Virus record (IMG/VR): IMGVR_UViG_2526164601_000022
Direction: 5' to 3' (one strand)
DNA from: a virus
Lineage: Duplodnaviria > Heunggongvirae > Uroviricota > Caudoviricetes
Length of the DNA: 17,593 nt
In this document: one piece after another, positions 246 to 17,069 of the stretch
Layout of the letters: every line of letters begins with the position of its first letter
Numbering within the stretch: the first letter of the stretch is position 1
Made by a program: the position numbers and the translations under genes
Notes under the pieces: generated by a model
What the model was told of the DNA's origin: nothing
Seen by the model: only the letters and a program-made list of their open reading frames with translations
Databases searched by the model: none

Positions 246-1834
246 AACGAACGCCTGTCCTGATTGATGTGAACGGTGTTCCGCTTCGGGAGAGCCTCAG
301 CTACAACGGGGGCGGTGCAGGATTTGGCGGGCAAATGGCGGAGTGGTTGCCACCGGCGCAGAGTGCCGATGCGGCCCTGTTGCCCGCGTTGCGTCTGGGC
401 AATGCCCGTGCAGATGATCTGGTGCGCAATAACGGGATAGCGGCCAATGCGGTGGCACTGCATAAGGATCATATTGTCGGGCATATGTTTCTGATCAGCT
501 ACCGTCCGAACTGGCGCTGGCTGGGGATGCGGGAGACTGCAGCAAAAAGTTTTGTCGATGAGGTGGAGGCGGCCTGGTCGGAATACGCCGAAGGGATGTC
601 TGGCGAGATCGACGTGGAAGGGAAACGCACGTTTACGGAATTTATCCGTGAAGGTGTGGGCGTTCATGCGTTTAACGGCGAAATCTTTGTGCAGCCGGTC
701 TGGGATACGGAGAGCACGCAACTGTTTCGTACGCGTTTTAAAGCCGTGAGTCCGAAACGGGTGGACACGCCAGGACACGGTATGGGGAACCGTTTTCTGC
801 GGGCCGGGGTGGAGGTCGATCGATATGGCCGTGCCGTTGCGTACCATATCTGTGAGGATGATTTTCCGTTCTCTGGTAGTGGACGATGGGAACGGATCCC
901 GCGTGAACTACCCACCGGGCGTCCGGCCATGCTGCATATTTTCGAGCCGGTGGAGGACGGGCAGACCCGTGGGGCTAATCAGTTTTACAGCGTCATGGAA
1001 CGGCTGAAGATGCTGGATTCCCTGCAGGCAACACAGCTTCAGTCGGCCATTGTGAAAGCCATGTATGCAGCGACGATTGAAAGTGAACTTGATACCGAAA
1101 AGGCCTTTGAATATATCGCCGGTGCGCCGCAGGGGCAGAAGGATAATCCGCTTATTAATATTCTGGATAAGTTCTCCACCTGGTATGACACGAATAACGT
1201 GACGCTGGGCGGTGTCAAAATTCCGCACCTTTTCCCCGGTGATGATCTGAAACTACAGACTGCGCAGGATTCAGACAATGGATTTTCGGCGCTTGAACAG
1301 GCGCTGCTGCGGTATATCGCCGCCGGTCTTGGCGTTTCCTACGAACAGTTGTCCCGGGATTACTCGAAGGTCAGTTATTCAAGTGCCCGCGCCTCCGCCA
1401 ATGAGTCGTGGCGCTATTTTACGGGACGACGAAAATTTATTGCGTCCCGGCTGGCCACGCAGATGTTTTCCTGCTGGCTGGAAGAGGCACTTCTTCGGGG
1501 GATTATTCGTCCGCCACGGGCGCGTTTTGATTTTTATCAGGCGCGATCAGCCTGGTCACGGGCTGAGTGGATTGGAGCCGGAAGAATGGCCATTGACGGG
1601 CTCAAGGAAGTCCAGGAATCAGTGATGCGCATTGAGGCCGGACTGAGCACGTATGAGAAAGAGCTGGCGCTGATGGGCGAGGATTATCAGGACATTTTCC
1701 GCCAGCAGGTCAGGGAATCTGCTGAGCGACAAAAAGCCGGACTCTCACGTCCGGTGTGGATAGCGCAGGCGTATGAGCAGCAGATAGCGGAGAGTCGCAG
1801 GCCGGAAGAGGAGACAACACCACGTGAGACGTAA
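242..1834 (+). CDS. B: Portal protein gpB
   Basis: 530 aa ORF (lambda B 533 aa) following W; SD GGAGTGAGG upstream of ATG 242; lambda-like synteny. Confidence 0.9.
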   Translation: MKRTPVLIDVNGVPLRESLSYNGGGAGFGGQMAEWLPPAQSADAALLPALRLGNARADDLVRNNGIAANAVALHKDHIVGHMFLISYRPNWRWLGMRETAAKSFVDEVEAAWSEYAEGMSGEIDVEGKRTFTEFIREGVGVHAFNGEIFVQPVWDTESTQLFRTRFKAVSPKRVDTPGHGMGNRFLRAGVEVDRYGRAVAYHICEDDFPFSGSGRWERIPRELPTGRPAMLHIFEPVEDGQTRGANQFYSVMERLKMLDSLQATQLQSAIVKAMYAATIESELDTEKAFEYIAGAPQGQKDNPLINILDKFSTWYDTNNVTLGGVKIPHLFPGDDLKLQTAQDSDNGFSALEQALLRYIAAGLGVSYEQLSRDYSKVSYSSARASANESWRYFTGRRKFIASRLATQMFSCWLEEALLRGIIRPPRARFDFYQARSAWSRAEWIGAGRMAIDGLKEVQESVMRIEAGLSTYEKELALMGEDYQDIFRQQVRESAERQKAGLSRPVWIAQAYEQQIAESRRPEEETTPRET

Positions 1835-3329
1835 TCTTTCACACATTATTGCCGCAGCATTCAATGAACCGCTGCTTCTGGAGCCCGCCTATGCGCGGGT
1901 TTTCTTTTGCGCGCTCGGGCGCGAGATGGGGGCATCAAGTCTTTCGGTACCACAACAGCAGGTACAGTTTGATGCTCCCGGAATGCTGGCTGAAACGGAC
2001 GAGTACATGGCCGGAGGTAAACGACCGGCCCGTGTTTACCGGGTGGTGAACGGTATTGCTGTACTGCCGGTGACCGGCACGCTGGTGCACCGGCTGGGGG
2101 GTATGCGGCCATTTTCCGGAATGACAGGCTATGACGGCATTGTCGCCTGTCTTCAGCAGGCAATGGCGGATAGCCAGGTGCGGGGCGTACTGCTGGACAT
2201 TGACAGTCCGGGCGGGCAGGCCGCCGGCGCGTTTGACTGCGCTGACATGATTTACCGCCTCCGTCAGCAGAAGCCGGTCTGGGCACTGTGCAATGACACG
2301 GCCTGCTCTGCAGCCATGCTGCTGGCGTCGGCCTGCTCCCGACGGCTGGTTACCCAGACATCCCGTATCGGCTCCATTGGCGTGATGATGAGCCATGTCA
2401 GCTATGCCGGTCATCTGGCGCAGGCCGGTGTTGATATCACGCTGATTTACTCAGGGGCGCACAAGGTGGATGGCAATCAGTTTGAAGCGTTGCCGGCAGA
2501 GGTTCGCCAGGACATGCAACAGCGCATTGATGCGGCGCGCCGGATGTTTGCTGAAAAAGTAGCGATGTATACCGGTCTGTCTGTTGATGCTGTCACGGGA
2601 ACAGAGGCCGCCGTTTTTGAAGGTCAGTCCGGCATTGAGGCCGGGCTGGCGGATGAATTAATCAATGCGTCGGATGCCATCAGTGTGATGGCCACGGCGC
2701 TGAACAGTAATGTCAGAGGAGGCACTATGCCGCAATTAACTGCAACGGAAGCCGCCGCGCAGGAGAACCAGCGGGTGATGGGGATCCTGACATGCCAGGA
2801 AGCGAAAGGACGTGAACAGCTTGCCACGATGCTGGCAGGACAACAGGGCATGAGCGTTGAACAGGCCCGGGCGATTCTGGCCGCGGCGGCACCACAGCAG
2901 CCGGTGGCATCCGCGCAGAGTGAAGCCGATCGCATTATGGCGTGTGAAGAAGCGAAAGGTCGTGAACAACTGGCGGCAACGCTGGCGGCGATGCCGGAGA
3001 TGACGGTGGAAAAAGCCCGCCCGATCCTGGCTGCTTCACCGCAGGCGGATGCCGGACCCTCACTCCGTGATCAGATCATGGCACTGGATGAGGCAAAAGG
3101 GGCTGAGGCGCAGGCTGAACAGCTGGCTGCCTGCCCGGGAATGACTGTGGAGAGCGCCCGGGCTGTGCTGGCTGCGGGATCAGGTAAGGCAGAACCGGTC
3201 TCTGCATCCACAACCGCCATGTTTGAACGCATCATGGCGAACCATTCACCGGCAGCGGTACAGGGTGGCGTGCCACAGACGTCAGCAGACGGTGATGCGG
3301 ACGTGAAAATGCTCATGGCCATGCCATGA
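1824..3329 (+). CDS. C: Capsid maturation protease / scaffold gpC (S49 ClpP/SppA-like peptidase)
   Basis: 501 aa; N-terminus RNLSHIIAAAFNEPLLLEPAYARVFFCAL resembles recalled lambda C; S49 signature LLDIDSPGGQAAGAFD; GTG start at 1824 overlapping B end (exact start uncertain). Confidence 0.88.
   Translation: MRRNLSHIIAAAFNEPLLLEPAYARVFFCALGREMGASSLSVPQQQVQFDAPGMLAETDEYMAGGKRPARVYRVVNGIAVLPVTGTLVHRLGGMRPFSGMTGYDGIVACLQQAMADSQVRGVLLDIDSPGGQAAGAFDCADMIYRLRQQKPVWALCNDTACSAAMLLASACSRRLVTQTSRIGSIGVMMSHVSYAGHLAQAGVDITLIYSGAHKVDGNQFEALPAEVRQDMQQRIDAARRMFAEKVAMYTGLSVDAVTGTEAAVFEGQSGIEAGLADELINASDAISVMATALNSNVRGGTMPQLTATEAAAQENQRVMGILTCQEAKGREQLATMLAGQQGMSVEQARAILAAAAPQQPVASAQSEADRIMACEEAKGREQLAATLAAMPEMTVEKARPILAASPQADAGPSLRDQIMALDEAKGAEAQAEQLAACPGMTVESARAVLAAGSGKAEPVSASTTAMFERIMANHSPAAVQGGVPQTSADGDADVKMLMAMP
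2727..3329 (+). CDS. nu3: Nu3-like scaffolding protein from an internal in-frame start within C
   Basis: Strong SD AGAGGAGG (2715-2722) 4 nt before in-frame ATG 2727 inside C; lambda Nu3 is likewise the in-frame C-terminal part of C. Confidence 0.6.
   Translation: MPQLTATEAAAQENQRVMGILTCQEAKGREQLATMLAGQQGMSVEQARAILAAAAPQQPVASAQSEADRIMACEEAKGREQLAATLAAMPEMTVEKARPILAASPQADAGPSLRDQIMALDEAKGAEAQAEQLAACPGMTVESARAVLAAGSGKAEPVSASTTAMFERIMANHSPAAVQGGVPQTSADGDADVKMLMAMP
2772..3236 (+). repeat. Degenerate in-frame tandem repeats (3 copies plus partial 4th; units 44-56 codons) in the scaffold domain
   Basis: Protein units start RVMGILTCQEAKGREQLA (2772), RIMACEEAKGREQLA (2940), QIMALDEAKGAEAQAEQLA (3072), RIMANHSP (3228); each has a ...MTVE.AR.ILAA... 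core. DNA copies are diverged. Confidence 0.5.
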
Positions 3330-3365: not shown

Positions 3366-3713
3366 ATGGTGACGAAAACCATCACTGAACAGCGTGCGGA
3401 AGTACGTATTTTTGCCGGTAATGATCCGGCTCATACCGCCACAGGCAGCAGCGGGATTTCCTCGGCAACACCGGCACTGACGCCCCTGATGCTGGATGAG
3501 GCTACCGGGAAACTGGTGGTCTGGGACGGACAGAAAGCCGGTAGTGCGGTTGGCATACTGGTACTGCCGCTTGAAGGCACAGAGACGGTACTGACGTATT
3601 ACAAGTCGGGGACCTTTGCGACGGAGGCAATCCGCTGGCCTGACAGTGTGGATGAACACAAAAAGGCAAATGCCTTTGCCGGCAGTGCCCTGAGTCACGC
3701 GGCGCTGCCGTAA
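3366..3713 (+). CDS. D: Head decoration protein gpD
   Basis: 115 aa; NDPAHTAT...TPLMLDE...KLVVWDG...YYKSGTF...AFAGSAL matches recalled lambda D; SD CAGGAGG upstream. Confidence 0.9.
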   Translation: MVTKTITEQRAEVRIFAGNDPAHTATGSSGISSATPALTPLMLDEATGKLVVWDGQKAGSAVGILVLPLEGTETVLTYYKSGTFATEAIRWPDSVDEHKKANAFAGSALSHAALP

Positions 3714-3770: not shown

Positions 3771-4799
3771 ATGGGATTGTTTACGACCCGCCAGTTACTC
3801 GGTTATACCGAACAAAAAGTGAAATTTCGTGCGCTGTTTCTGGAGCTGTTTTTCCGCCGTACGGTGAATTTCCATACCGAAGAGGTGATGCTGGACAAAA
3901 TTACCGGAAAAACGCCGGTGGCGGCCTATGTCTCCCCGGTTGTTGAAGGAAAAGTGCTGCGTCATCGTGGTGGTGAAACCCGCGTGTTACGTCCGGGCTA
4001 CGTCAAGCCGAAACACGAATTTAATTACCAGCAGGCGGTTGAGCGTCTTCCCGGTGAAGATCCGGCTCAACTGAACGACCCGGCCTACCGTCGTCTGCGT
4101 ATCATCACCGATAACCTCAAACAGGAAGAGCATGCCATTGTCCAGGTGGAAGAAATGCAGGCGGTGAATGCCGTGCTGTATGGCAAATACACCATGGAAG
4201 GGGATCAGTTTGATACTGTCGAGGTGGATTTTGGACGCTCTGAAGGAAATAACATTGAGCAGGCCGACGGTAAAAAATGGTCTGAGCAGGACCGTGATAC
4301 GTTTGATCCGACGCATGATATTGACCTCTACTGCGATCAGGCCAGCGGTCTTGTGAATATTGCCATTATGGACGGTACTGTCTGGCGTCTGCTGAATGGT
4401 TTTAAGCTGTTCCGCGAAAAACTGGATACCCGTCGCGGCTCAAATTCACAACTCGAAACGGCAGTGAAAGACCTGGGGGCGGTGGTGTCTTTCAAAGGGT
4501 ATTACGGCGATCTGGCCATTGTGGTGGCGAAAACGTCTTATGTGGCAGAGGACGGTACCGAAAAACGTTATCTGCCGGAGGGCACGCTGGTCCTGGGAAA
4601 TACGGCTGCAGATGGGATCCGTTGTTACGGTGCCATTCAGGATGCGCAGGCGTTGTCCGAAGGTGTGGTGGCTTCTTCCCGTTACCCGAAACACTGGCTG
4701 ACCGTGGGCGATCCGGCCCGTGAATTTACCATGACGCAGTCCGCACCGCTGATGGTGCTGCCGGATCCGGATGAGTTTGTGGTGGTGCAGGTGAAATAA
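3771..4799 (+). CDS. E: Major capsid protein gpE
   Basis: 342 aa (lambda E 341); blocks LFLELFFRR, RPGYVKPKHE, DPAYRRLRII, EEMQAVNAVLYGKYTMEGD, LDTRRGSNSQLETAVKDLG, GDPAREFTMTQSAPLM match recalled lambda E. Confidence 0.93.
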   Translation: MGLFTTRQLLGYTEQKVKFRALFLELFFRRTVNFHTEEVMLDKITGKTPVAAYVSPVVEGKVLRHRGGETRVLRPGYVKPKHEFNYQQAVERLPGEDPAQLNDPAYRRLRIITDNLKQEEHAIVQVEEMQAVNAVLYGKYTMEGDQFDTVEVDFGRSEGNNIEQADGKKWSEQDRDTFDPTHDIDLYCDQASGLVNIAIMDGTVWRLLNGFKLFREKLDTRRGSNSQLETAVKDLGAVVSFKGYYGDLAIVVAKTSYVAEDGTEKRYLPEGTLVLGNTAADGIRCYGAIQDAQALSEGVVASSRYPKHWLTVGDPAREFTMTQSAPLMVLPDPDEFVVVQVK

Positions 4800-4807
4800 T
4801 CCGTGAG

Positions 4808-4836
4808 CGGGGGCGAAATGCCCCCGTGTCTTTTTT
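4808..4836 (+). terminator. Candidate intrinsic terminator / attenuating hairpin downstream of E
   Basis: 7-bp G+C stem CGGGGGC (4808-4814) / GCCCCCG (4820-4826), loop GAAAT, then TGTC + T6 (4831-4836); 9 nt after E stop, in the FI leader. Confidence 0.45.
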
Positions 4837-4850
4837 CACAGGGGGCTGAT

Positions 4851-5234
4851 ATGGCAACAAAAGAAGAAAATCAGAAACATCTTCGTCAACTGGCTGGCCT
4901 GCTGGGGCGCGAGGCGGATATGTCGGGGAGTGCTGCGGATATTGCGCAACGTGTGTCTGAGTGGGAAGAGGAGCTTGCTGCTTCCCGGGAGGGCATTATG
5001 CCTGGTGATGAGAGCGGGCCTGAGCAAAATCACACAGACGATGGTGAGCAGTTGCACAACACTGATGCTACGGATGATGTTAAAGCGGTCCGTGTGCGGA
5101 AATGCCTGCATGTGATGGGGTATTGCCCGGAGACAGGCCGTCCCGTTGAACTGACGTACCGGGGCATGCGTGTTCTGGTGCCATCACCACTGGCGACAGC
5201 CATGATACAGCACGGAACGGCTGAGCATGCGTGA
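4851..5234 (+). CDS. FI: DNA-packaging/head assembly protein gpFI
   Basis: N-terminus MATKEENQKHLRQLAGLL...AQRVSEWEEEL aligns with recalled lambda FI (MTKDELIARLRSLGEQL...ALRVAELKEEL). ATG 4851 preferred over the upstream GTG 4803 of the ORF track. Confidence 0.75.
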   Translation: MATKEENQKHLRQLAGLLGREADMSGSAADIAQRVSEWEEELAASREGIMPGDESGPEQNHTDDGEQLHNTDATDDVKAVRVRKCLHVMGYCPETGRPVELTYRGMRVLVPSPLATAMIQHGTAEHA

Positions 5235-5433
5235 TTTTCAGAATGCCTTTGATGCTGCCCTTGCCGGGGTGGACAGCACGATTGTTGAAGTGATGGGGCT
5301 CTGTGCGCAGTTCACCTCGGGGGCACAGTGTGGCAGCGAAGTTCAGGGGGTTTTTGACGATCCGGAGTCGCTGGGGTTTGCCGGTAGCGGGGTCCGTATT
5401 GAAGGAAGCTGCCCGTCATTATTTAACTGGTAA
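5227..5433 (+). pseudogene. FII: Head-tail connector gpFII, C-terminally truncated (about 66 homologous codons, then NW-stop)
   Basis: MRDFQNAFDAALAGVDSTIVEVMG...GVFDDPESLGFAGSGVRIEGSCPSLF matches the first ~66 residues of recalled lambda FII (117 aa); reading frame ends at TAA 5431-5433 where homology stops. Confidence 0.7.
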
Positions 5434-5801
5434 AGGAACGGTCCAGACTGAAACGGGCCACGGTCAGAAATCCGAATGCCAGAATTATCGTTAACCGCGG
5501 TGATCTCCCGGTGATTAAGCTGGGGATCAGGATGCCGGGGCGTCGTCCGGACAGCATACTCAAAGCCGGTCAGCATCGGTATCAGCGGGCATTTATTCAG
5601 CGATTAAAAAATGGTCGCTGGCATGTCATGCAGCGTGTGGCCGGGAAAAACCGTTACCCCATTGATGTGGTGAAAATCCCGATGGCGGCCCCACTGAAAC
5701 AGGCGTTTGATGAGAATGTTGACCGTATCCGGCGTGAACGCCTGCCCGGAGAACTGGCATATGCGCTGAAACAACAACTGAGGATTGCGATAAAACGATG
5801 A
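5427..5801 (+). pseudogene. Z: Tail protein gpZ, N-terminally truncated (only the C-terminal ~124 codons remain)
   Basis: Frame-3 ORF opens right after an in-frame TAA (5424-5426): LVKERSRLKRATVRNPNARIIVNRGDLPVIKLG...QRLKNGRWHVMQRVAGKNRYPIDVVKIPMA...RIRRERLP matches the C-terminal part of recalled lambda Z (192 aa); no 5' end or SD; stop overlaps U start (ATGA). Confidence 0.65.
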
Positions 5802-6193
5802 AACATACTGATATCCGTGCTGCAGTGCTGGATGCACTGGAGCTGCATGAACACGGGGCGACGCTGTTTGATGGTCGCCCCGTTGTTTTTGACGAAGAGG
5901 ATTTTCCCGCGGTCGCGGTTTATCTGACGGATGCAGAGTATACCGGTGAAGAGCTGGATGCGGATACCTGGCGGGCCACACTGCATATTGAAGTTTTCCT
6001 GCCTGCTCAGGTGCCGGATTCAGAGCTGGATTCGTGGATGGAGTCCCGGATTTATCCGGCGATGTCCGCGATCCCTGCACTGGCAGGGATGATTACCACG
6101 ATGGTTCAGCAGGGCTATGACTATCGTCGTGATGACGATATGGCGTTATGGAGCTCTGCAGATTTGACTTATTCCATTACATACGAGATGTGA
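5798..6193 (+). CDS. U: Tail terminator protein gpU
   Basis: 131 aa, same as lambda U; [15 protein letters not shown]...[19 protein letters not shown]...[16 protein letters not shown]...[10 protein letters not shown] is near-colinear with recalled lambda U. Confidence 0.92.
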
Positions 6194-6966: not shown

Positions 6967-7398
6967 ATGTTTCTGAAAACAGAACAATTTGAATATAACG
7001 GTGTGTCTGTCACGCTTTCCGAATTGTCTGCGCTGCAGCGTATTGAGCATCTTGCCCTCCTGAAACGGCGTGCAGAACAGGCAGAATCCAGCGGCAACCT
7101 GCAGGTAAGCGTGGAAGATCTCGTCAGAACCGGCGCGTTTCTGGTGGCGATGTCCCTGTGGCATAACCATCTGCAGAAAACGGGGTCACCGTCAATGAAT
7201 GAGGCCGTGATGCAGATTGAGCAGGAAGTCCTGACCACCTGGCCTGCTGATGCCATTGCCCGGGCGGAAGACGTGGTGTTGTGCCTGTCCGGGATGATCG
7301 AAGCTGTTCGTCCGGATACTGATATTACTGAAGTGGCGAAAAATAACACGCTGACTGATGATGATTTTTCTGCGGGAAAGTCTTCGACGGCGAGCTGA
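6967..7398 (+). CDS. G: Tail assembly chaperone gpG
   Basis: 143 aa (lambda G 140); MFLKTEQFEYNGVSVTLSELSALQRIEHLALLKRRAEQAES...GAFLVAMSLWHNH matches recalled lambda G; SD GGAGG upstream. Confidence 0.9.
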   Translation: MFLKTEQFEYNGVSVTLSELSALQRIEHLALLKRRAEQAESSGNLQVSVEDLVRTGAFLVAMSLWHNHLQKTGSPSMNEAVMQIEQEVLTTWPADAIARAEDVVLCLSGMIEAVRPDTDITEVAKNNTLTDDDFSAGKSSTAS

Positions 7399-7838
7399 AC
7401 TTTGCCCTCAGACTGGCGCGAGAGATGGGGAGGCCTGACTGGCGCGCCATGCTTGCCGGGATGACATCCACCGAATATGCCGACTGGCGACATTTTTACC
7501 GCACGCATTATTTTCAGGATACCCAGCTGGATATGCATTTTTCCGGGCTGACGTACGCTGTACTCAGCCTGTTTTTTTGCGATCCGGATATGCATCCCTC
7601 TGATTTCAGTCTGCTTGTCCCCCGGCATGAGGAAGAGCAGGTGGAGAGGCCGGATGAGGACAAAATGCTGATGCAGAAAGCGGCAGGACTTGCCGGAGGC
7701 GTCCGGTTCGGTGGGGACGGAGGGCGCGATATTTTATCGTCTGCGGATGTGGCGGATGTCATGGTGGATGATGCCGCATTAATGATGGCTTCAGCGGAGA
7801 TTTCCGGAGGTGTGAGATATGTCCCAGCCGGTTGGTGA
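6967..7838 (+). CDS. G-T: Tail assembly chaperone G-T fusion made by -1 frameshift (join 6967..7380, 7380..7838)
   Basis: -1 frame after the slippery site reads VFDGELNFALRLAREMGRPDWRAMLAGMTSTEYADWRHFYRTHYF...LMQKAAGLAGGVRFG, matching recalled lambda T; has no independent start/SD context. Confidence 0.75.
7374..7380 (+). promoter_or_regulatory. Programmed -1 ribosomal frameshift slippery heptamer G GGA AAG (G to G-T recoding site)
   Basis: GGGAAAG lies in G frame as G|GGA|AAG, 6 codons before the G stop; the -1 frame is open from 7365 to 7838 and encodes the T domain. Confidence 0.75.
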
Positions 7839-10724: not shown

Positions 10725-11421
10725 TGCAGGATATTCACGAAGAAAGTCTGAACGAGTCGGTTAAATCAGAGCAGTCACCGCGGGTGGTGCTCTGGGAAAT
10801 TGACCTGACGGTGCAGGGCGGTGAGCGGTATTTTTTCTGTAATGAGCTGAATGAAAAAGGGGAGGCGGTCACCTGGCAGGGGCGGCAATATCAGGTATAC
10901 CCGATTGACGGCAGTGGCTTTGAGATGAACGGGAAGGGCAGCAGTGCCCGCCCGTCGCTGACGGTGTCGAATCTGTTCGGTCTGGTCACCGGAATGGCGG
11001 AGGACCTGCAGAGCCTGGTGGGGGCCACGGTGGTCCGCCGCCGGGTGTATGCCCGTTTTCTGGATGCGGTGAATTTTGTGGCGGGCAATCCGGAAGCGGA
11101 CCCGGAGCAGGAGCTGAGCGACCGCTGGGTGGTGGAGCAGATGTCAGAGCTGACGGCCATGACAGCCTCGTTTGTGCTGGCAACACCGACGGAGACGGAC
11201 GGAGCGCTGTTTCCCGGTCGCATTATGCTGGCGAATACCTGTATGTGGACCTACCGCTCTGATGAGTGTGGTTACACGGTCCTGCGGTGGCGGATGAGTT
11301 CGATAAACCCATCACCGATATCCGTAAGGACAGATGCAGCAAGTGCATGCGCGGGTGTGAGATGCGCGGCATGGTGGCTAATTTTGGCGGTTTCCTTTCC
11401 ATTAACAAACTTTCGCAGTAA
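10724..11421 (+). pseudogene. L: Minor tail protein gpL, 1-bp frameshift near codon 185 (or assembly indel)
   Basis: Residues 1-184 match recalled lambda L (…GRIMLANTCMWTYRSDECGY); the lambda-like C-terminus GPAVADEFDKPITDIRKDRCSKCMRGCEMRGMVANFGGFLSINKLSQ-stop continues from 11278 in frame +2 relative to the start, implying one missing base at 11276-11278. The uninterrupted track ORF (to 11731) is the out-of-frame readthrough. Confidence 0.75.
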
Positions 11422-12936: not shown

Positions 12937-13464
12937 TTATTGAATGATGCCGCAGGCCATTCTCGCACCACCACCGCCCAGGGGCTCCGGATGGTCATGA
13001 TGGTTATCACCGCCAGCATGAAGCATGAGAGAACGCCCTTTAATCTCTTTTAATGAGTTCAGTCTCGGGGCCAGGACCGGGTAGTTCGCTTTTCCGTCAT
13101 GCGTCACGAACAGCGCAGGGAGGTCGCCCAGGTGTCCATCCGGAGACCAGGGGCCAAGATGTTTGCCGGTGTTTTTCGGGTCAAAGTGACCGCCAGCCGA
13201 TAATGCTGCGACCGGTTTTCCGTCTTTCAGTGCCGGGGCGCAATTTCCTTTTTCGTGCACATGAAAACCATGAATGCCTTCAGACAGAGAGTGAAGGGCT
13301 GGTGTGAACAGCAGACCGTAGGGGGTCTCCTGAATGGTTATTTTTCCAATGCTGACTTCTTTTCCGTCAGCACTGACAAGGTTCATTGGGACTTCCTGTT
13401 CTGCTGCGTATCCGCATGATGCTGCTGTCAGCATGGCAATGGCAGCAATGATTTTACATTTCAT
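12937..13464 (-). CDS. sodC: Periplasmic Cu,Zn superoxide dismutase (prophage cargo/moron)
   Basis: 175 aa from ATG at 13464-13462 with SD GAGGG 6 nt upstream; signal peptide [20 protein letters not shown]; Cu/Zn-SOD motifs [47 protein letters not shown]. The 344-aa track ORF is an upstream over-extension. Confidence 0.9.
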
Positions 13465-13597: not shown

Positions 13598-16500
13598 ATG
13601 GGTAAAGGTGGCGGCAGGGCGCACACACCTCGTGAGGCGAAGGACAATCTCAAATCCACGCAGATGATGAGCGTGATTGACGCCATTGGTGAAGGGCCGA
13701 TTGAAGGTCCGGTGAAGGGGCTGCAGAGTATCCTGGTGAACAAAACCCCGCTGACGGACACGGACGGTAATCCTGTGATACATGGTGTGACCGCGGTCTG
13801 GCGCGCCGGGGAGCAGGAGCAGACACCACCTGAAGGCTTTGAGTCCTCCGGGGCGGAAACCGCACTGGGCGTGGAAGTGACGAAGGCAAAGCCGGTGACG
13901 CGCACCATTACATCCGCGAACATTGACCGCCTGCGGGTCACCTTCGGGGTGCAGTCACTGGTGCAGACCACGTCAAAGGGTGACCGAAACCCGACATCCG
14001 TCCGACTGCTGATTCAGTTACAGCGTAACGGTAACTGGGTGACGGAAAAGGATGTCACCATTAACGGCAAGACCACCTCGCAGTTTCTGGCGTCGGTGAT
14101 TCTGGATAATCTGCCTGAGCGGCCCTTTAACATCCGGATGGTCCGGGAGACAGCGGACAGCACCTCGGACCAGCTGCAGAATAAGACGCTCTGGTCGTCA
14201 TACACCGAAATCATCGATGTGAAACAGTGCTACCCGAACACGGCGATTGTGGGGCTGCAGGTGGATGCGGAGCAGTTCGGCGGCCAGCAGATGACGGTGA
14301 ACTACCATATCCGCGGTCGCATCATCCAGGTGCCGTCAAACTATGACCCGGAAAAACGCACGTACAGTGGTATCTGGGACGGCAGTCTGAAACCGGCATA
14401 CAGCAACAACCCGGCCTGGTGTCTGTGGGACATGCTGACTCACCCGCGCTACGGCATGGGAAAACGTCTGGGGGCGGCGGATGTGGACAAGTGGGCGCTG
14501 TATGCCATCGGGCAGTACTGCGACCAGACGGTCCCGGATGGTTTCGGGGGGACCGAGCCGCGGATGACCTTTAATGCGTACCTGGCACAACAGCGTAAGG
14601 CGTGGGACGTTCTCAGTGATTTCTGCTCTGCGATGCGCTGTATGCCGGTATGGAACGGTCAGACGCTGACGTTCGTTCAGGACCGCCCGTCGGATGTGGT
14701 GTGGCCGTACACCAACAGCGATGTGGTGGTGGATGATAACGGCGTGGGATTCCGCTACAGCTTCAGTGCCCTGAAGGACCGGCACACGGCGGTGGAGGTG
14801 AATTACACCGACCCGCAGAACGGCTGGCAGACCTCCACGGAACTGGTGGAAGACCCGGAAGCCATACTGCGCTACGGACGCAACCTGCTGAAGATGGACG
14901 CGTTCGGCTGTACCAGCCGCGGTCAGGCCCACCGTGCCGGACTGTGGGTGATAAAGACCGAACTGCTGGAAACGCAGACGGTGGATTTCACGCTCGGGTC
15001 TCAGGGGCTGCGGCACACACCCGGTGACATTATTGAAATCTGTGATAATGACTATGCCGGGACCCTGACCGGCGGACGTGTCCTGTCCATTGATGCTGCC
15101 ACCCGCACCCTGACGCTGGACCGTGAGGTGACCCTGCCGGAGACAGGTGCCGCCACGGTGAACCTGATTAACGGCAGCGGTAAGCCGGTGAGTGTGGCCA
15201 TCACTGCACACCCCGCGCCGGACCGGATACAGGTCAGCACCCTGCCTGATGGTGTGGAGACATACGGTGTATGGGGACTCTCCCTGCCGTCACTGCGTCG
15301 TCGCCTGTTCCGCTGTGTCTCCATCCGGGAAAACACGGACGGCACCTTTGCCATCACGGCGGTGCAGCACGTACCGGAAAAGAAGCCATCGTGGATAACG
15401 GGGCCAGCTTTGAGCCGCAGTCAGGCACCCTGAACAGCGTTATTCCACCGGCAGTGCAGCACCTGACGGTGGAGGTGAGCGCGGCTGACGGTCAGTATCT
15501 GGCACAGGCGAAATGGGACACGCCGCGGGTGGTGAAGGGTGTGCGCTTCAGTCTGCGCCTGACCAGCGGAAGCGGAGAAGACAGCCGTCTGGTGACCACC
15601 GCCATCACTGCGGATACAGAGCATCGTTTCAGTGGTCTGCCGCTCGGGGAATACACCCTGACAGTCAGGGCAATTAACAGTTATGGCCAGCAGGGGAACC
15701 GGCCACCACCACGTTCAGGATTAATGCACCTGCGGTACCGCCACGATTGAGCTGACACCGGGCTATTTTCAGATAACAGCGGTCCCGCGTCTTGCGGTGT
15801 ATGACCCGACGGTACAGTTTGAGTTCTGGTTTTCGGAGGCAAAAATCGCAGACATATCTCAGGTGGAAACCTCTGCCCGTTATCTGGGGACCGGCAGTCA
15901 GTGGAGTGTATCCGGCCCGCACATTAAGCCCGGGAAGGATTTCTGGTTTTACGTGCGCAGCGTCAACCTGGTGGGGAAATCTGCTTTTGTGGAAGCCAGT
16001 GGCCGGGCCAGCAATGATGCAGAAGGGTATCTGGGACTGTTTCGGGAAAAAATAGGAAAACTGCATCTGGCTCAGGGGCTGTGGGAGCTGATAGACAACA
16101 GCCAGCTTGCGGATGAGATGGCGGAGATGAAGACCACCATCACCGAAACCCGCAATGAAATCACACAGACGGTCAGTAAAACGCTGGAAGACCAGAGCGC
16201 CACCATACAGCAGATACAGCGCGTGCAGAAGGACACAAATGATGACCTTGCTGCACTTTACATGCTGAAGGTACAGAAAACAAAAAATGGCATACCCTAT
16301 GTTGCCGGTATTGGAGCGGGGATTGAGGATACTGATGGCCAGCCCCTGAGCAACATACTGCTGCTGGCTGACCGTATTGCGATGATTAACCCGGAGGACG
16401 GCAACACCACGCCGTTATTTGTGGCGCAGGGGAATCAGTTGTTCATGAACGATGTGTTCCTGAAGCGGCTGTTTGCGGTGAGTATCACCTCGTCCGGCAA

Positions 16501-17069
16501 TCCCCCGACGTTTTCCCTGACGCCGGAGGGCAGGCTGACCGCAAGAAATGCTGATATCAGCGGTAACGTGAATGCGAATTCCGGGACGCTCAACAACGTC
16601 ACGATTAACGAGAACTGTCGGGTTCTGGGAAAACTGTCCGCGAACCAGATTGAAGGCGATCTCGTTAAAACAGTGGGCAAAGCTTTCCCCCGGGATTCCC
16701 GTGCACCGGAGCGGTGGCCATCAGGGACCATTACCGTCAGGGTTTATGACGATCAGCCGTTTGACCGACAAATTGTTATTCCGGCGGTGGCATTCAGCGG
16801 CGCTAAGCATGAGAGAGAGCATACTGATATTTACTCCTCATGCCGTCTGATAGTGCGGAAAAAACGGTGCTGAAATTTATAACCGTACCGCGCTGGATAA
16901 TACGCTGATTTACAGTGGCGTTATTGATATGCCTGCCGGTCACGGTCACATGACGCTGGAGTTTTCGGTATCAGCATGGCTGGTGAATAACTGGTATCCC
17001 ACAGCAAGTATCAGCGATTTGCTGGTTGTGGTGATGAAGAAAGCCACCGCAGGCATCAGTATCAGCTGA
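13598..17069 (+). pseudogene. J: Central tail fiber / host specificity protein gpJ, interrupted by four 1-bp indels (or assembly errors)
   Basis: Colinear with recalled lambda J (1132 aa) from [22 protein letters not shown] to the C-terminal ...[14 protein letters not shown]-stop (17067-17069), but homology hops frames at ~15378-15381 (A4, -1), ~15693-15696 (G4, -1), ~15744-15746 (-1) and 16859-16864 (A6, +1). SD GAGAGGAACATT before ATG 13598. Confidence 0.8.

Follow-up and report, generated by a model that had tools for sequence, protein, structure and literature searches.

Gene 5 and the nested gene 6

The window considered here is a stretch of 17,593 nucleotides (nt) from the Caudoviricetes virus record IMGVR_UViG_2526164601_000022. 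Gene 5 of this window encodes an S49 prohead protease fused to a scaffold region, and an in-frame nested gene, gene 6, is predicted to start at an internal ATG and to encode the scaffold region alone. Three tandem copies of a small module, designated R1, R2, and R3, are found in the C-terminal part that the two products share. The gene is of the lambda C/Nu3 type (phage 21 gene 5/6), as identified by its S49 domain, an internal Shine–Dalgarno (SD) sequence with an ATG about 60% into the gene, and its position in the head operon. The coordinates of the features are collected in Table 1.

Table 1. Coordinates of gene 5, gene 6, and their features in the window
Feature	Position	Strand	Evidence and remarks
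SD-like GAGGAG for gene 5	1808..1813	+	10 nt upstream of GTG; corresponds to the ribosome-binding site (RBS) given in both phage 21 records, M81255.1 and OL657228.1
Gene 5, lambda C homologue, S49 prohead protease fused to scaffold region	1824..3329	+	Open reading frame (ORF) list and translation; 501 amino acids (aa), GTG start
Peptidase_S49 domain, C residues 146–293	2259..2702	+	Pfam PF01343, 121.6 bits, E = 3.7e-35
SD AGAGGAGG for the nested scaffold gene	2715..2722	+	Encoded by conserved Gly-Gly codons of gene 5; 4-nt spacer to ATG
Nested in-frame gene 6, Nu3 homologue, scaffolding protein, 200 aa (predicted start)	2727..3329	+	Same sequence as the last 200 residues of the gene 5 product
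Module R1 (Tri1 box), ENQRVMGILTCQEAKGREQLATMLAGQQGMSVEQARAILAAAAP	2763..2894	+	Hidden Markov model (HMM) E about 1e-21 to 6e-24; GenBank-equivalent span 2794–2897
Module R2 (Tri box 2), EADRIMACEEAKGREQLAATLAAMPEMTVEKARPILAASPQ	2922..3044	+	HMM E about 2e-23 to 1e-25; GenBank-equivalent span 2934–3044
Module R3 (Tri3 box), LRDQIMALDEAKGAEAQAEQLAACPGMTVESARAVLAAGSG	3063..3185	+	HMM E about 1e-20 to 6e-23; GenBank-equivalent span 3075–3188
C-terminal tail, 47 aa, two short predicted helices	3186..3326	+	No significant similarity to R1–R3; low AlphaFold2 (AF2) confidence

The 200-aa segment from position 2727 to the end of the gene was aligned with itself. The best split score is 107, versus 38.6 ± 6.4 (maximum of 61) for 200 composition-preserving shuffles of the segment, and the internal repetition reported in a first-pass annotation of this DNA is thus significant (z = 10.8). 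The pairwise identities are 22/35 for R1/R2 (z = 19.3), 23/36 for R2/R3 (z = 17.8), and 19/36 for R1/R3 (z = 11.6). An HMM of the module gives exactly three matches in C, at residues 314–357, 367–407, and 414–454. The annotation had proposed three to four in-frame copies, of which three stand. The candidate fourth copy, formed by the last 36 residues (165–200 of the nested protein), was rejected with z ≤ 0.4 against every true copy, a value indistinguishable from shuffles. The sequence ERIM in the tail is particular to the window and a few close variants; phage 21 has EHFM at this position and other relatives have DQFM, DAFM, or ERFM. Six amino-acid substitutions separate the scaffold part of the window from that of phage 21, and they include the change of EHF to ERI that produces the illusory fourth “RIM” motif.

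The shared C-terminal part consists of a leader of 12 residues (Met plus 11 aa), three modules of 41–44 aa, variable linkers of 6–9 aa, and the 47-aa tail. By position, R1 is orthologous to the one module of lambda, and a “GIL.C” extension is common to both. Tandem Repeats Finder returned 0 rows at a minimum score of 30, and a search for nucleotide repeats gave nothing beyond seeds of 12 nt at spacings of 150 and 153 nt. The mutual nucleotide identity of R1–R3 is 57–67%. The repeat is therefore a feature of the protein level only, and a DNA array resembling a variable number tandem repeat, with copies at least about 70% alike, was rejected.

The ATG at 2727–2729 is the annotated start of “gene 6” in M81255.1 and of the “scaffolding protein” in OL657228.1, and an RBS is annotated at the AGAGGAGG site in both of these phage 21 records. 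The combination of this site with an ATG just upstream of the first repeat, pointed out in the first-pass annotation, is thus seen in the sequence and coincides with the phage 21 scaffold start. The C genes of lambda, phi80, N15, Gifsy-1, and phage 21 were taken from their records, translated, and aligned. The five-phage alignment shows no variation at Gly299, Gly300, or Met302. At the nucleotide level, GGAGG-N4-5-ATG is found at the homologous Met in most of the relatives examined, including phage 21, lambda, phi80, N15, Gifsy-1, E. albertii, Trabulsiella, Enterobacter, and others. Two loci among these relatives have GGAGT instead of GGAGG, and a four-copy variant has AAGGAGA-N5-ATG. Judged from these sequences, conservation of an RBS inside the coding sequence is widespread in the family and supports the nested gene, with predicted initiation at 2727. 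RNA folding near the internal start does not exceed that of shuffled sequences in stability (z = 0.36), and no promoter-like site was found inside gene 5. The GTG start of gene 5, at its distance of 10 nt from GAGGAG, would fit with the scaffold being made in excess over the protease, as is the case in lambda.

Two further observations were made on the annotation of scaffold genes. In the RefSeq/GenBank record of lambda (NC_001416), nu3 extends from 5132 to 5737 (201 aa) and begins at an ATG without a good SD sequence. The GGAGG-N5-ATG that recurs in the family is located in lambda at position 5342 and would give a product of 131 aa; the annotations of N15 and phage 21 use the homologous downstream start. 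In OL657228.1, matches to the pattern ttgynnnnnnttgy within the scaffold gene are also annotated as “CII binding site”, and the equivalent positions in the window are 2732–2745 and 2966–2979 on the minus strand. These are probably nonfunctional because the pattern is so loose that several chance matches are expected per 43-kb genome.

The N-terminal two-thirds of gene 5 form the S49 protease part. The gene product matches PHROG 53 (“head maturation protease”) with E = 2e-228 and TIGR00706 (SppA_dom) with E = 1e-31, the latter below the curated cutoff of that model. Ser162 (nt 2307–2309) and Lys214 are unchanged across the five phages, and the alignment is invariant at columns C161, S162, A163, and K214. 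By homology, the gene 5 product is predicted to mature the prohead by proteolysis and to degrade the scaffold. The window as a whole carries a block of lambda-like head and tail genes. The ORFs of the head region are arranged in the order 39–245, 242–1834 (portal-like), 1824–3329, 3366–3713 (decoration-like), and 3771–4799 (major-capsid-like), and the first 11 nt of gene 5 coincide with the last 11 nt of the portal gene. Gene 5 follows the portal gene and precedes the decoration and major capsid genes, as in a lambda-like head operon, in agreement with the RefSeq annotation of a near-identical prophage.

The triplication, the nested gene, and its RBS are not new, as all three were deposited in GenBank for phage 21 in the early 1990s. 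The record in question, M81255.1 (“Bacteriophage 21 head gene operon”), which we take to originate from Smith and Feiss (Gene 1993), contains coding sequences for gene 5 (4572–6077) and the nested gene 6 (5475–6077) together with an RBS at 5464–5468. Three repeat_region features are also present, designated “Tri1 box” (5542–5645), “Tri box” (5682–5792), and “Tri3 box” (5823–5936). Subtraction of 2748 converts these coordinates to positions 1824–3329, 2727–3329, 2716–2720, 2794–2897, 2934–3044, and 3075–3188 of the window, respectively. The same nested “scaffolding protein” is annotated in the complete phage 21 genome from 2022 (OL657228.1), and the announcement of that genome names M81255 as an earlier phage 21 fragment. 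Gene 5 of the window is 98.6% identical to that of phage 21 in nucleotides over the full 1506 nt and 97% identical in amino acids, and it is 95–99% identical to about 18 other coliphage records (megablast for both nucleotide comparisons). The 603-nt scaffold segment was detected in 1865 of 5426 complete E. coli genomes, among them O157:H7 EDL933, and is nearly always exactly 603 nt long. As a discovery, the finding therefore carries little weight, with about one-third of complete E. coli genomes containing the segment.

Predicted fold, distribution, and constraint of the module

The alignment of the module contains invariant A, K, G, E, A, L, A, M, and A positions, and the consensus is I-M-A-C-x-E-A-K-G-R-E-x-L-A-x-x-L-A-x-x-P-G-M-T-V-E-Q-A-x-x-x-L-x-A-A-P. 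An AF2 model of a single module, built from 15 aligned module sequences, has a mean predicted local distance difference test (pLDDT) score of 86.3 and contains three short helices at residues 2–13, 21–28, and 35–44. The model of the whole 200-aa scaffold has a mean pLDDT of 67.8 and has the look of beads on a string, with three units, low-confidence linkers, and a poorly predicted tail. Each module is thus predicted to fold as a small three-helix unit.

The scaffold part was compared with several databases. Pfam and NCBIfam contain no model for it and gave only a subthreshold match to HHH, and in PHROGs it is assigned only to generic scaffold and protease families. Neither the scaffold nor the module gave anything significant in the PDB by sequence (phmmer and profile searches), and nothing was found in the PDB by fold when the whole scaffold and one module were used with Foldseek. 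The high-probability Foldseek matches in BFVD are only other S49 prohead proteases, with query TM-scores (TMq) of 0.83–0.87, from Salmonella phage 37, Synechococcus virus S-ESS1, and a metagenomic siphovirus. In several family members, the module profile also gives a weak and nonsignificant match (E = 0.14–5.6) to a segment of the S49 domain, RRMFAEKVAMYTGLSVDA, at C residues 239–256 (about nt 2538–2591). This segment could be a chance helix–loop–helix resemblance or could reflect a very old internal relationship.

The copy number of the module was determined from genome loci and from an exhaustive profile search, the first set of homologues being mostly partial proteins of under 350 aa. The profile search of 1.84 billion representative proteins gave 875 matches at E ≤ 1e-3. 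The best 150 of these contain 144 new representatives, and a single copy is present in 130 of the 144, where the full-length proteins are 350–850 aa long (mostly 410–550 aa) and carry the module near the C-terminus. Nine of the new representatives have two copies, which are fragments in some cases and independent divergent duplications in others (e.g., P0148, P0105, and P0111), and four have three copies. Among the GTDB species representatives, three copies are found in E. coli, Shigella, E. albertii, Trabulsiella guamensis, and Providencia alcalifaciens, and one copy is found in about 45 other loci. Within the scaffold parts of the protease/scaffold family, no element other than the module is conserved, and the module is normally present once. 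Expansion is the parsimonious direction of change since the single copy is dominant in a far more diverse set of relatives.

R1, R2, and R3 are 59–82% identical to their positional counterparts in Gifsy-1, Trabulsiella, and Providencia, versus 50–59% identical to their neighbors in the same protein. For R1, the identity to the R1 modules of these three is 72–82%, and R2 is 78% identical to R2 of Gifsy-1. Even in phages of only 56–71% identity, the three units are each conserved at their respective positions. The closer similarity to the positional counterparts indicates a triplication older than the divergence of the phage 21, Gifsy-1, Trabulsiella, and Providencia lineages.

Constraint was estimated by the method of Nei and Gojobori against Gifsy-1, Trabulsiella, and Providencia. 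The proportion of nonsynonymous differences (pN) is 0.12–0.34 for the modules, 0.13–0.23 for the protease domain, and 0.44–0.50 for linker 1 and the tail. Where the synonymous rate (dS) could be estimated, the ratio of the nonsynonymous to the synonymous rate (dN/dS) is 0.07–0.33 for the modules and 0.10–0.12 for the protease domain. R3 is the least constrained module, with a pN of 0.27–0.34 and a dN/dS, where estimable, of 0.22–0.33. By these measures, the modules are under more nonsynonymous constraint than the linkers and the tail.

Variants in the number of copies are also found. A four-copy form from E. coli, P0028, belongs to the same gene family and has the same R1 and the same tail, but its scaffold is 235 aa long with four modules; it is present at full length in about 104 complete E. 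coli genomes. Copies 2–4 of P0028 are 80–85% identical in protein and 76% identical in nucleotides, and were therefore probably duplicated, or homogenized by gene conversion, more recently than the copies of the phage 21 type. A deletion of 19 aa inside R2, between two “LAA” motifs, is found in P0009 and P0011, the latter of which stands for 53 sequences. This deleted form also appears, as a scaffold segment of 546 nt, in a complete genome (H151). The rare two-copy forms include an in-register R1/R2 hybrid (P0020), and other shortened variants are P0015 and P0021. Some of the rare or singleton shortened forms may be assembly artifacts.

Comparison with named systems and state of the prophage

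The C proteins of lambda (439 aa), phi80 (447 aa), and N15 (447 aa) contain one module each, and those of phage 21 (501 aa) and Gifsy-1 (498 aa) contain three each. The first-pass annotation had put the number of modules in lambda C/Nu3 at apparently one, and the HMM gives exactly one match in lambda, as it does in phi80 and N15. The excess of the window protein over lambda C, put earlier at about 60 aa, is 62 aa. It is composed of +97 aa from two modules and their linkers, –36 aa from a shorter linker after the internal Met, +8 aa in the tail, and –7 aa in the protease part. The post-Met linker has 11 residues in the window and 47 in lambda, and its length in phi80 and N15 is about 55 aa. No degenerate module was found in the lambda linker by a relaxed HMM search (--max, E up to 10). 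With an S49 domain, the head-gene position, and three modules versus one, the gene is thus a lambda C-like gene with an expanded module in its Nu3 scaffold part, as had been proposed.

Genes 5 and 6 of phage 21 specify the same nested products of 501 and 200 aa with the same RBS and ATG, and the Tri boxes are at the same offsets as in the window. The window gene differs in being located in a prophage with a deletion and frameshifts in the tail genes. In gpC/gpNu3 of lambda, gp5/gp6 of N15, and gp5 of phi80, an S49 protease is likewise combined with an in-frame nested scaffold that has a common C-terminus. These systems also share the Gly-Gly-x-Met start with the embedded GGAGG, the module, a similar tail, and the place in the head operon. 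They differ in having one module, a post-Met linker of 47–55 aa, and a scaffold of 131–137 aa versus 200 aa, and the overall identity is about 52%. STM2605 of Gifsy-1, the gpC homologue of this Salmonella prophage, has three modules that are orthologous to R1, R2, and R3 in the same order, together with the same internal start. However, its scaffold part is only 56% identical, linker 1 is shorter, and the C-terminal tail is longer.

Two other systems offer a functional analogy only. Each carries a single binding element rather than three in tandem, and neither showed any similarity to the scaffold in sequence or fold searches. In P22 gp8, a small helical (helix–turn–helix) unit at the C-terminal end of the scaffold contacts the coat protein. 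In the herpesvirus pair UL26/UL26.5, the nested in-frame protease and scaffold genes share a C-terminus, through which the protease is co-assembled. The C-terminal domain of P22 gp8 was not recovered by sequence in the PDB or by Foldseek at E < 1, short helical domains being hard to detect.

A set of lambda-type C genes (about 54% identical to the window protein, one module) was encountered on short contigs, several of them labeled near 1× coverage (L016–L024, L042–L043, L048–L053, and similar), in assemblies of, for example, Neobacillus, Chromatium, Kitasatospora, Shewanella, Leeuwenhoekiella, and Akkermansia. These genes in unrelated assemblies look like contamination with lambda control DNA.

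The window was compared with its best E. coli match, strain B1_2 (98.6%). Relative to this match, 327 bp are missing at 5424/5425. The FII-like head–tail joining gene has lost its 3′ end and the Z-like tail gene its 5′ end, so that ORFs of 68 and 96 aa are left. A 1-bp deletion at 11282 frameshifts the L-like minor tail gene, the ORF of which extends to 11731 and encodes 335 aa instead of 232. Indels of 1 bp at 15378, 15696, 15738, 16859, and 17085 leave the J-like tail tip gene in pieces (13598–15433 and 15797–16873). Gene 5/6 is undamaged. In all probability the prophage is defective, unless the assembly contains indel errors; the single-base indels would be either prophage decay or homopolymer errors. 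Among the other genes of the window, a sodC moron (Cu/Zn superoxide dismutase family) is located at 12937–13464 on the minus strand between tail assembly gene I and gene J, and the same layout is annotated in a near-identical prophage of Shiga toxin-producing E. coli. The G-like and T-like tail assembly chaperone ORFs (6967–7398 and 7425–7838) have the arrangement expected for the programmed –1 frameshift of lambda G/GT, as seen in the ORF layout only.

Proposed role of the modules

We consider it highly probable that the locus is a gene pair 5/6 of the phage 21 type in an E. coli lambdoid prophage. The three Tri boxes on the shared part would probably act as contact units in head assembly. 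One reading frame would give two products, the 501-aa S49 prohead protease from the GTG and the 200-aa scaffold from the internal SD sequence and ATG 2727. Since the module occurs in both the scaffold and the protease and constitutes the conserved core of the former, it is most likely a contact unit. It would mediate scaffold–scaffold contacts, contacts between the scaffold and the major capsid protein, or both, and would thereby nucleate assembly of the shell. The same contacts would carry the protease into the prohead. Three modules on flexible linkers would make the scaffold of the phage 21 type multivalent, and the extra modules may stand in for the long Ser/Thr/Ala/Gln-rich linker of lambda. 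After assembly, the protease would degrade the scaffold, as it does in lambda.

Several points weigh against this assignment. The GenBank notes of M81255.1 describe each Tri box as “function unknown; putative”, and the contact role is our inference. The AF2 models were built on shallow alignments of 15–21 sequences. The title of Medina et al. 2011 describes lambda gpNu3 as intrinsically disordered, which is hard to square with the predicted three-helix fold. Because the synonymous sites are near saturation, the dN/dS values are approximate, and several could not be calculated. Gene 5/6 may also be unused in the window, given that the prophage looks defective. In favor of the assignment, Nu3–Nu3, Nu3–C, and Nu3–E interactions have been reported for lambda, although none of them is mapped to the module (PMC3224144).

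The alternative that comes closest holds that the extra modules are mainly a spacer, which would set the length or reach of the scaffold within the prohead and replace the low-complexity linker of roughly 47 aa with no added valence. The number of modules and the length of the linker do trade off, as indicated by the post-Met linker lengths given above, and natural variants with 2, about 2.5, and 4 copies suggest that length is tolerated over a range. However, a pure spacer should drift like the linkers and the tail, whereas the pN values of R2 and R3 are only 0.20–0.34 and both modules retain the invariant A-K-G-(R)-E...L-A...M...A positions of R1. The spacer is regarded as unlikely, although it is a fair competitor. 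It is far less probable that the modules are nucleic acid-binding units resembling the helix–hairpin–helix (HhH) motif, by which the scaffold or the protease would contact DNA. The Pfam HHH model (PF00633) does match R3 weakly (E = 0.018–0.093, 13–15 bits), profile searches gave weak matches to the C-terminal HhH repeats of NusA (E about 0.6), and the pattern L-A-x-x-P-G-M-T-x-x-x-A-x-x-I-L resembles L-x-x-L-P-G-I-G-x-x-x-A. However, all of the Pfam scores are well under the gathering threshold of 24 bits (the best is 15.3), the hairpin is P-G-M-T/S with no second glycine, and the Foldseek search of the PDB returned no HhH protein; the motif was rejected. The course of lambda head assembly, in which scaffolds leave or are degraded before DNA enters, also counts against DNA binding.

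The least credible reading is that the repetition is a chance or compositional artifact of an alanine-rich, low-complexity tail and that the internal ATG is unused. The region is rich in Ala, Gln, and Glu, and no DNA repeat was returned by Tandem Repeats Finder. For the repeat, this reading is already refuted by the distance between the observed score and the shuffle maximum and by pairwise z values of up to 19. The conservation of the units by position in divergent phages and the recurrence of the SD–ATG at the nucleotide level in most of the relatives examined argue against it as well.

An extension of the contact-unit assignment is offered as a tentative possibility. The copy number of the Tri box (1, 2, about 2.5, 3, or 4) may be a tunable valence of the scaffold, in which each module would bind one subunit of the major capsid protein or a neighboring scaffold molecule, and lineages would trade a long disordered linker for extra binding units. 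If this were true, the natural copy-number series would be a ready-made system for examining how the valence of a scaffold controls nucleation of the procapsid and loading of the protease.

The module is the sole conserved and apparently folded element of the scaffold half in a large family of S49 prohead protease/scaffold proteins. With no Pfam or NCBIfam model to describe it and with natural variants of one to four copies, the module may provide a simple genetic handle on the contact between scaffold and shell and on the recruitment of the protease in lambda-type phages.

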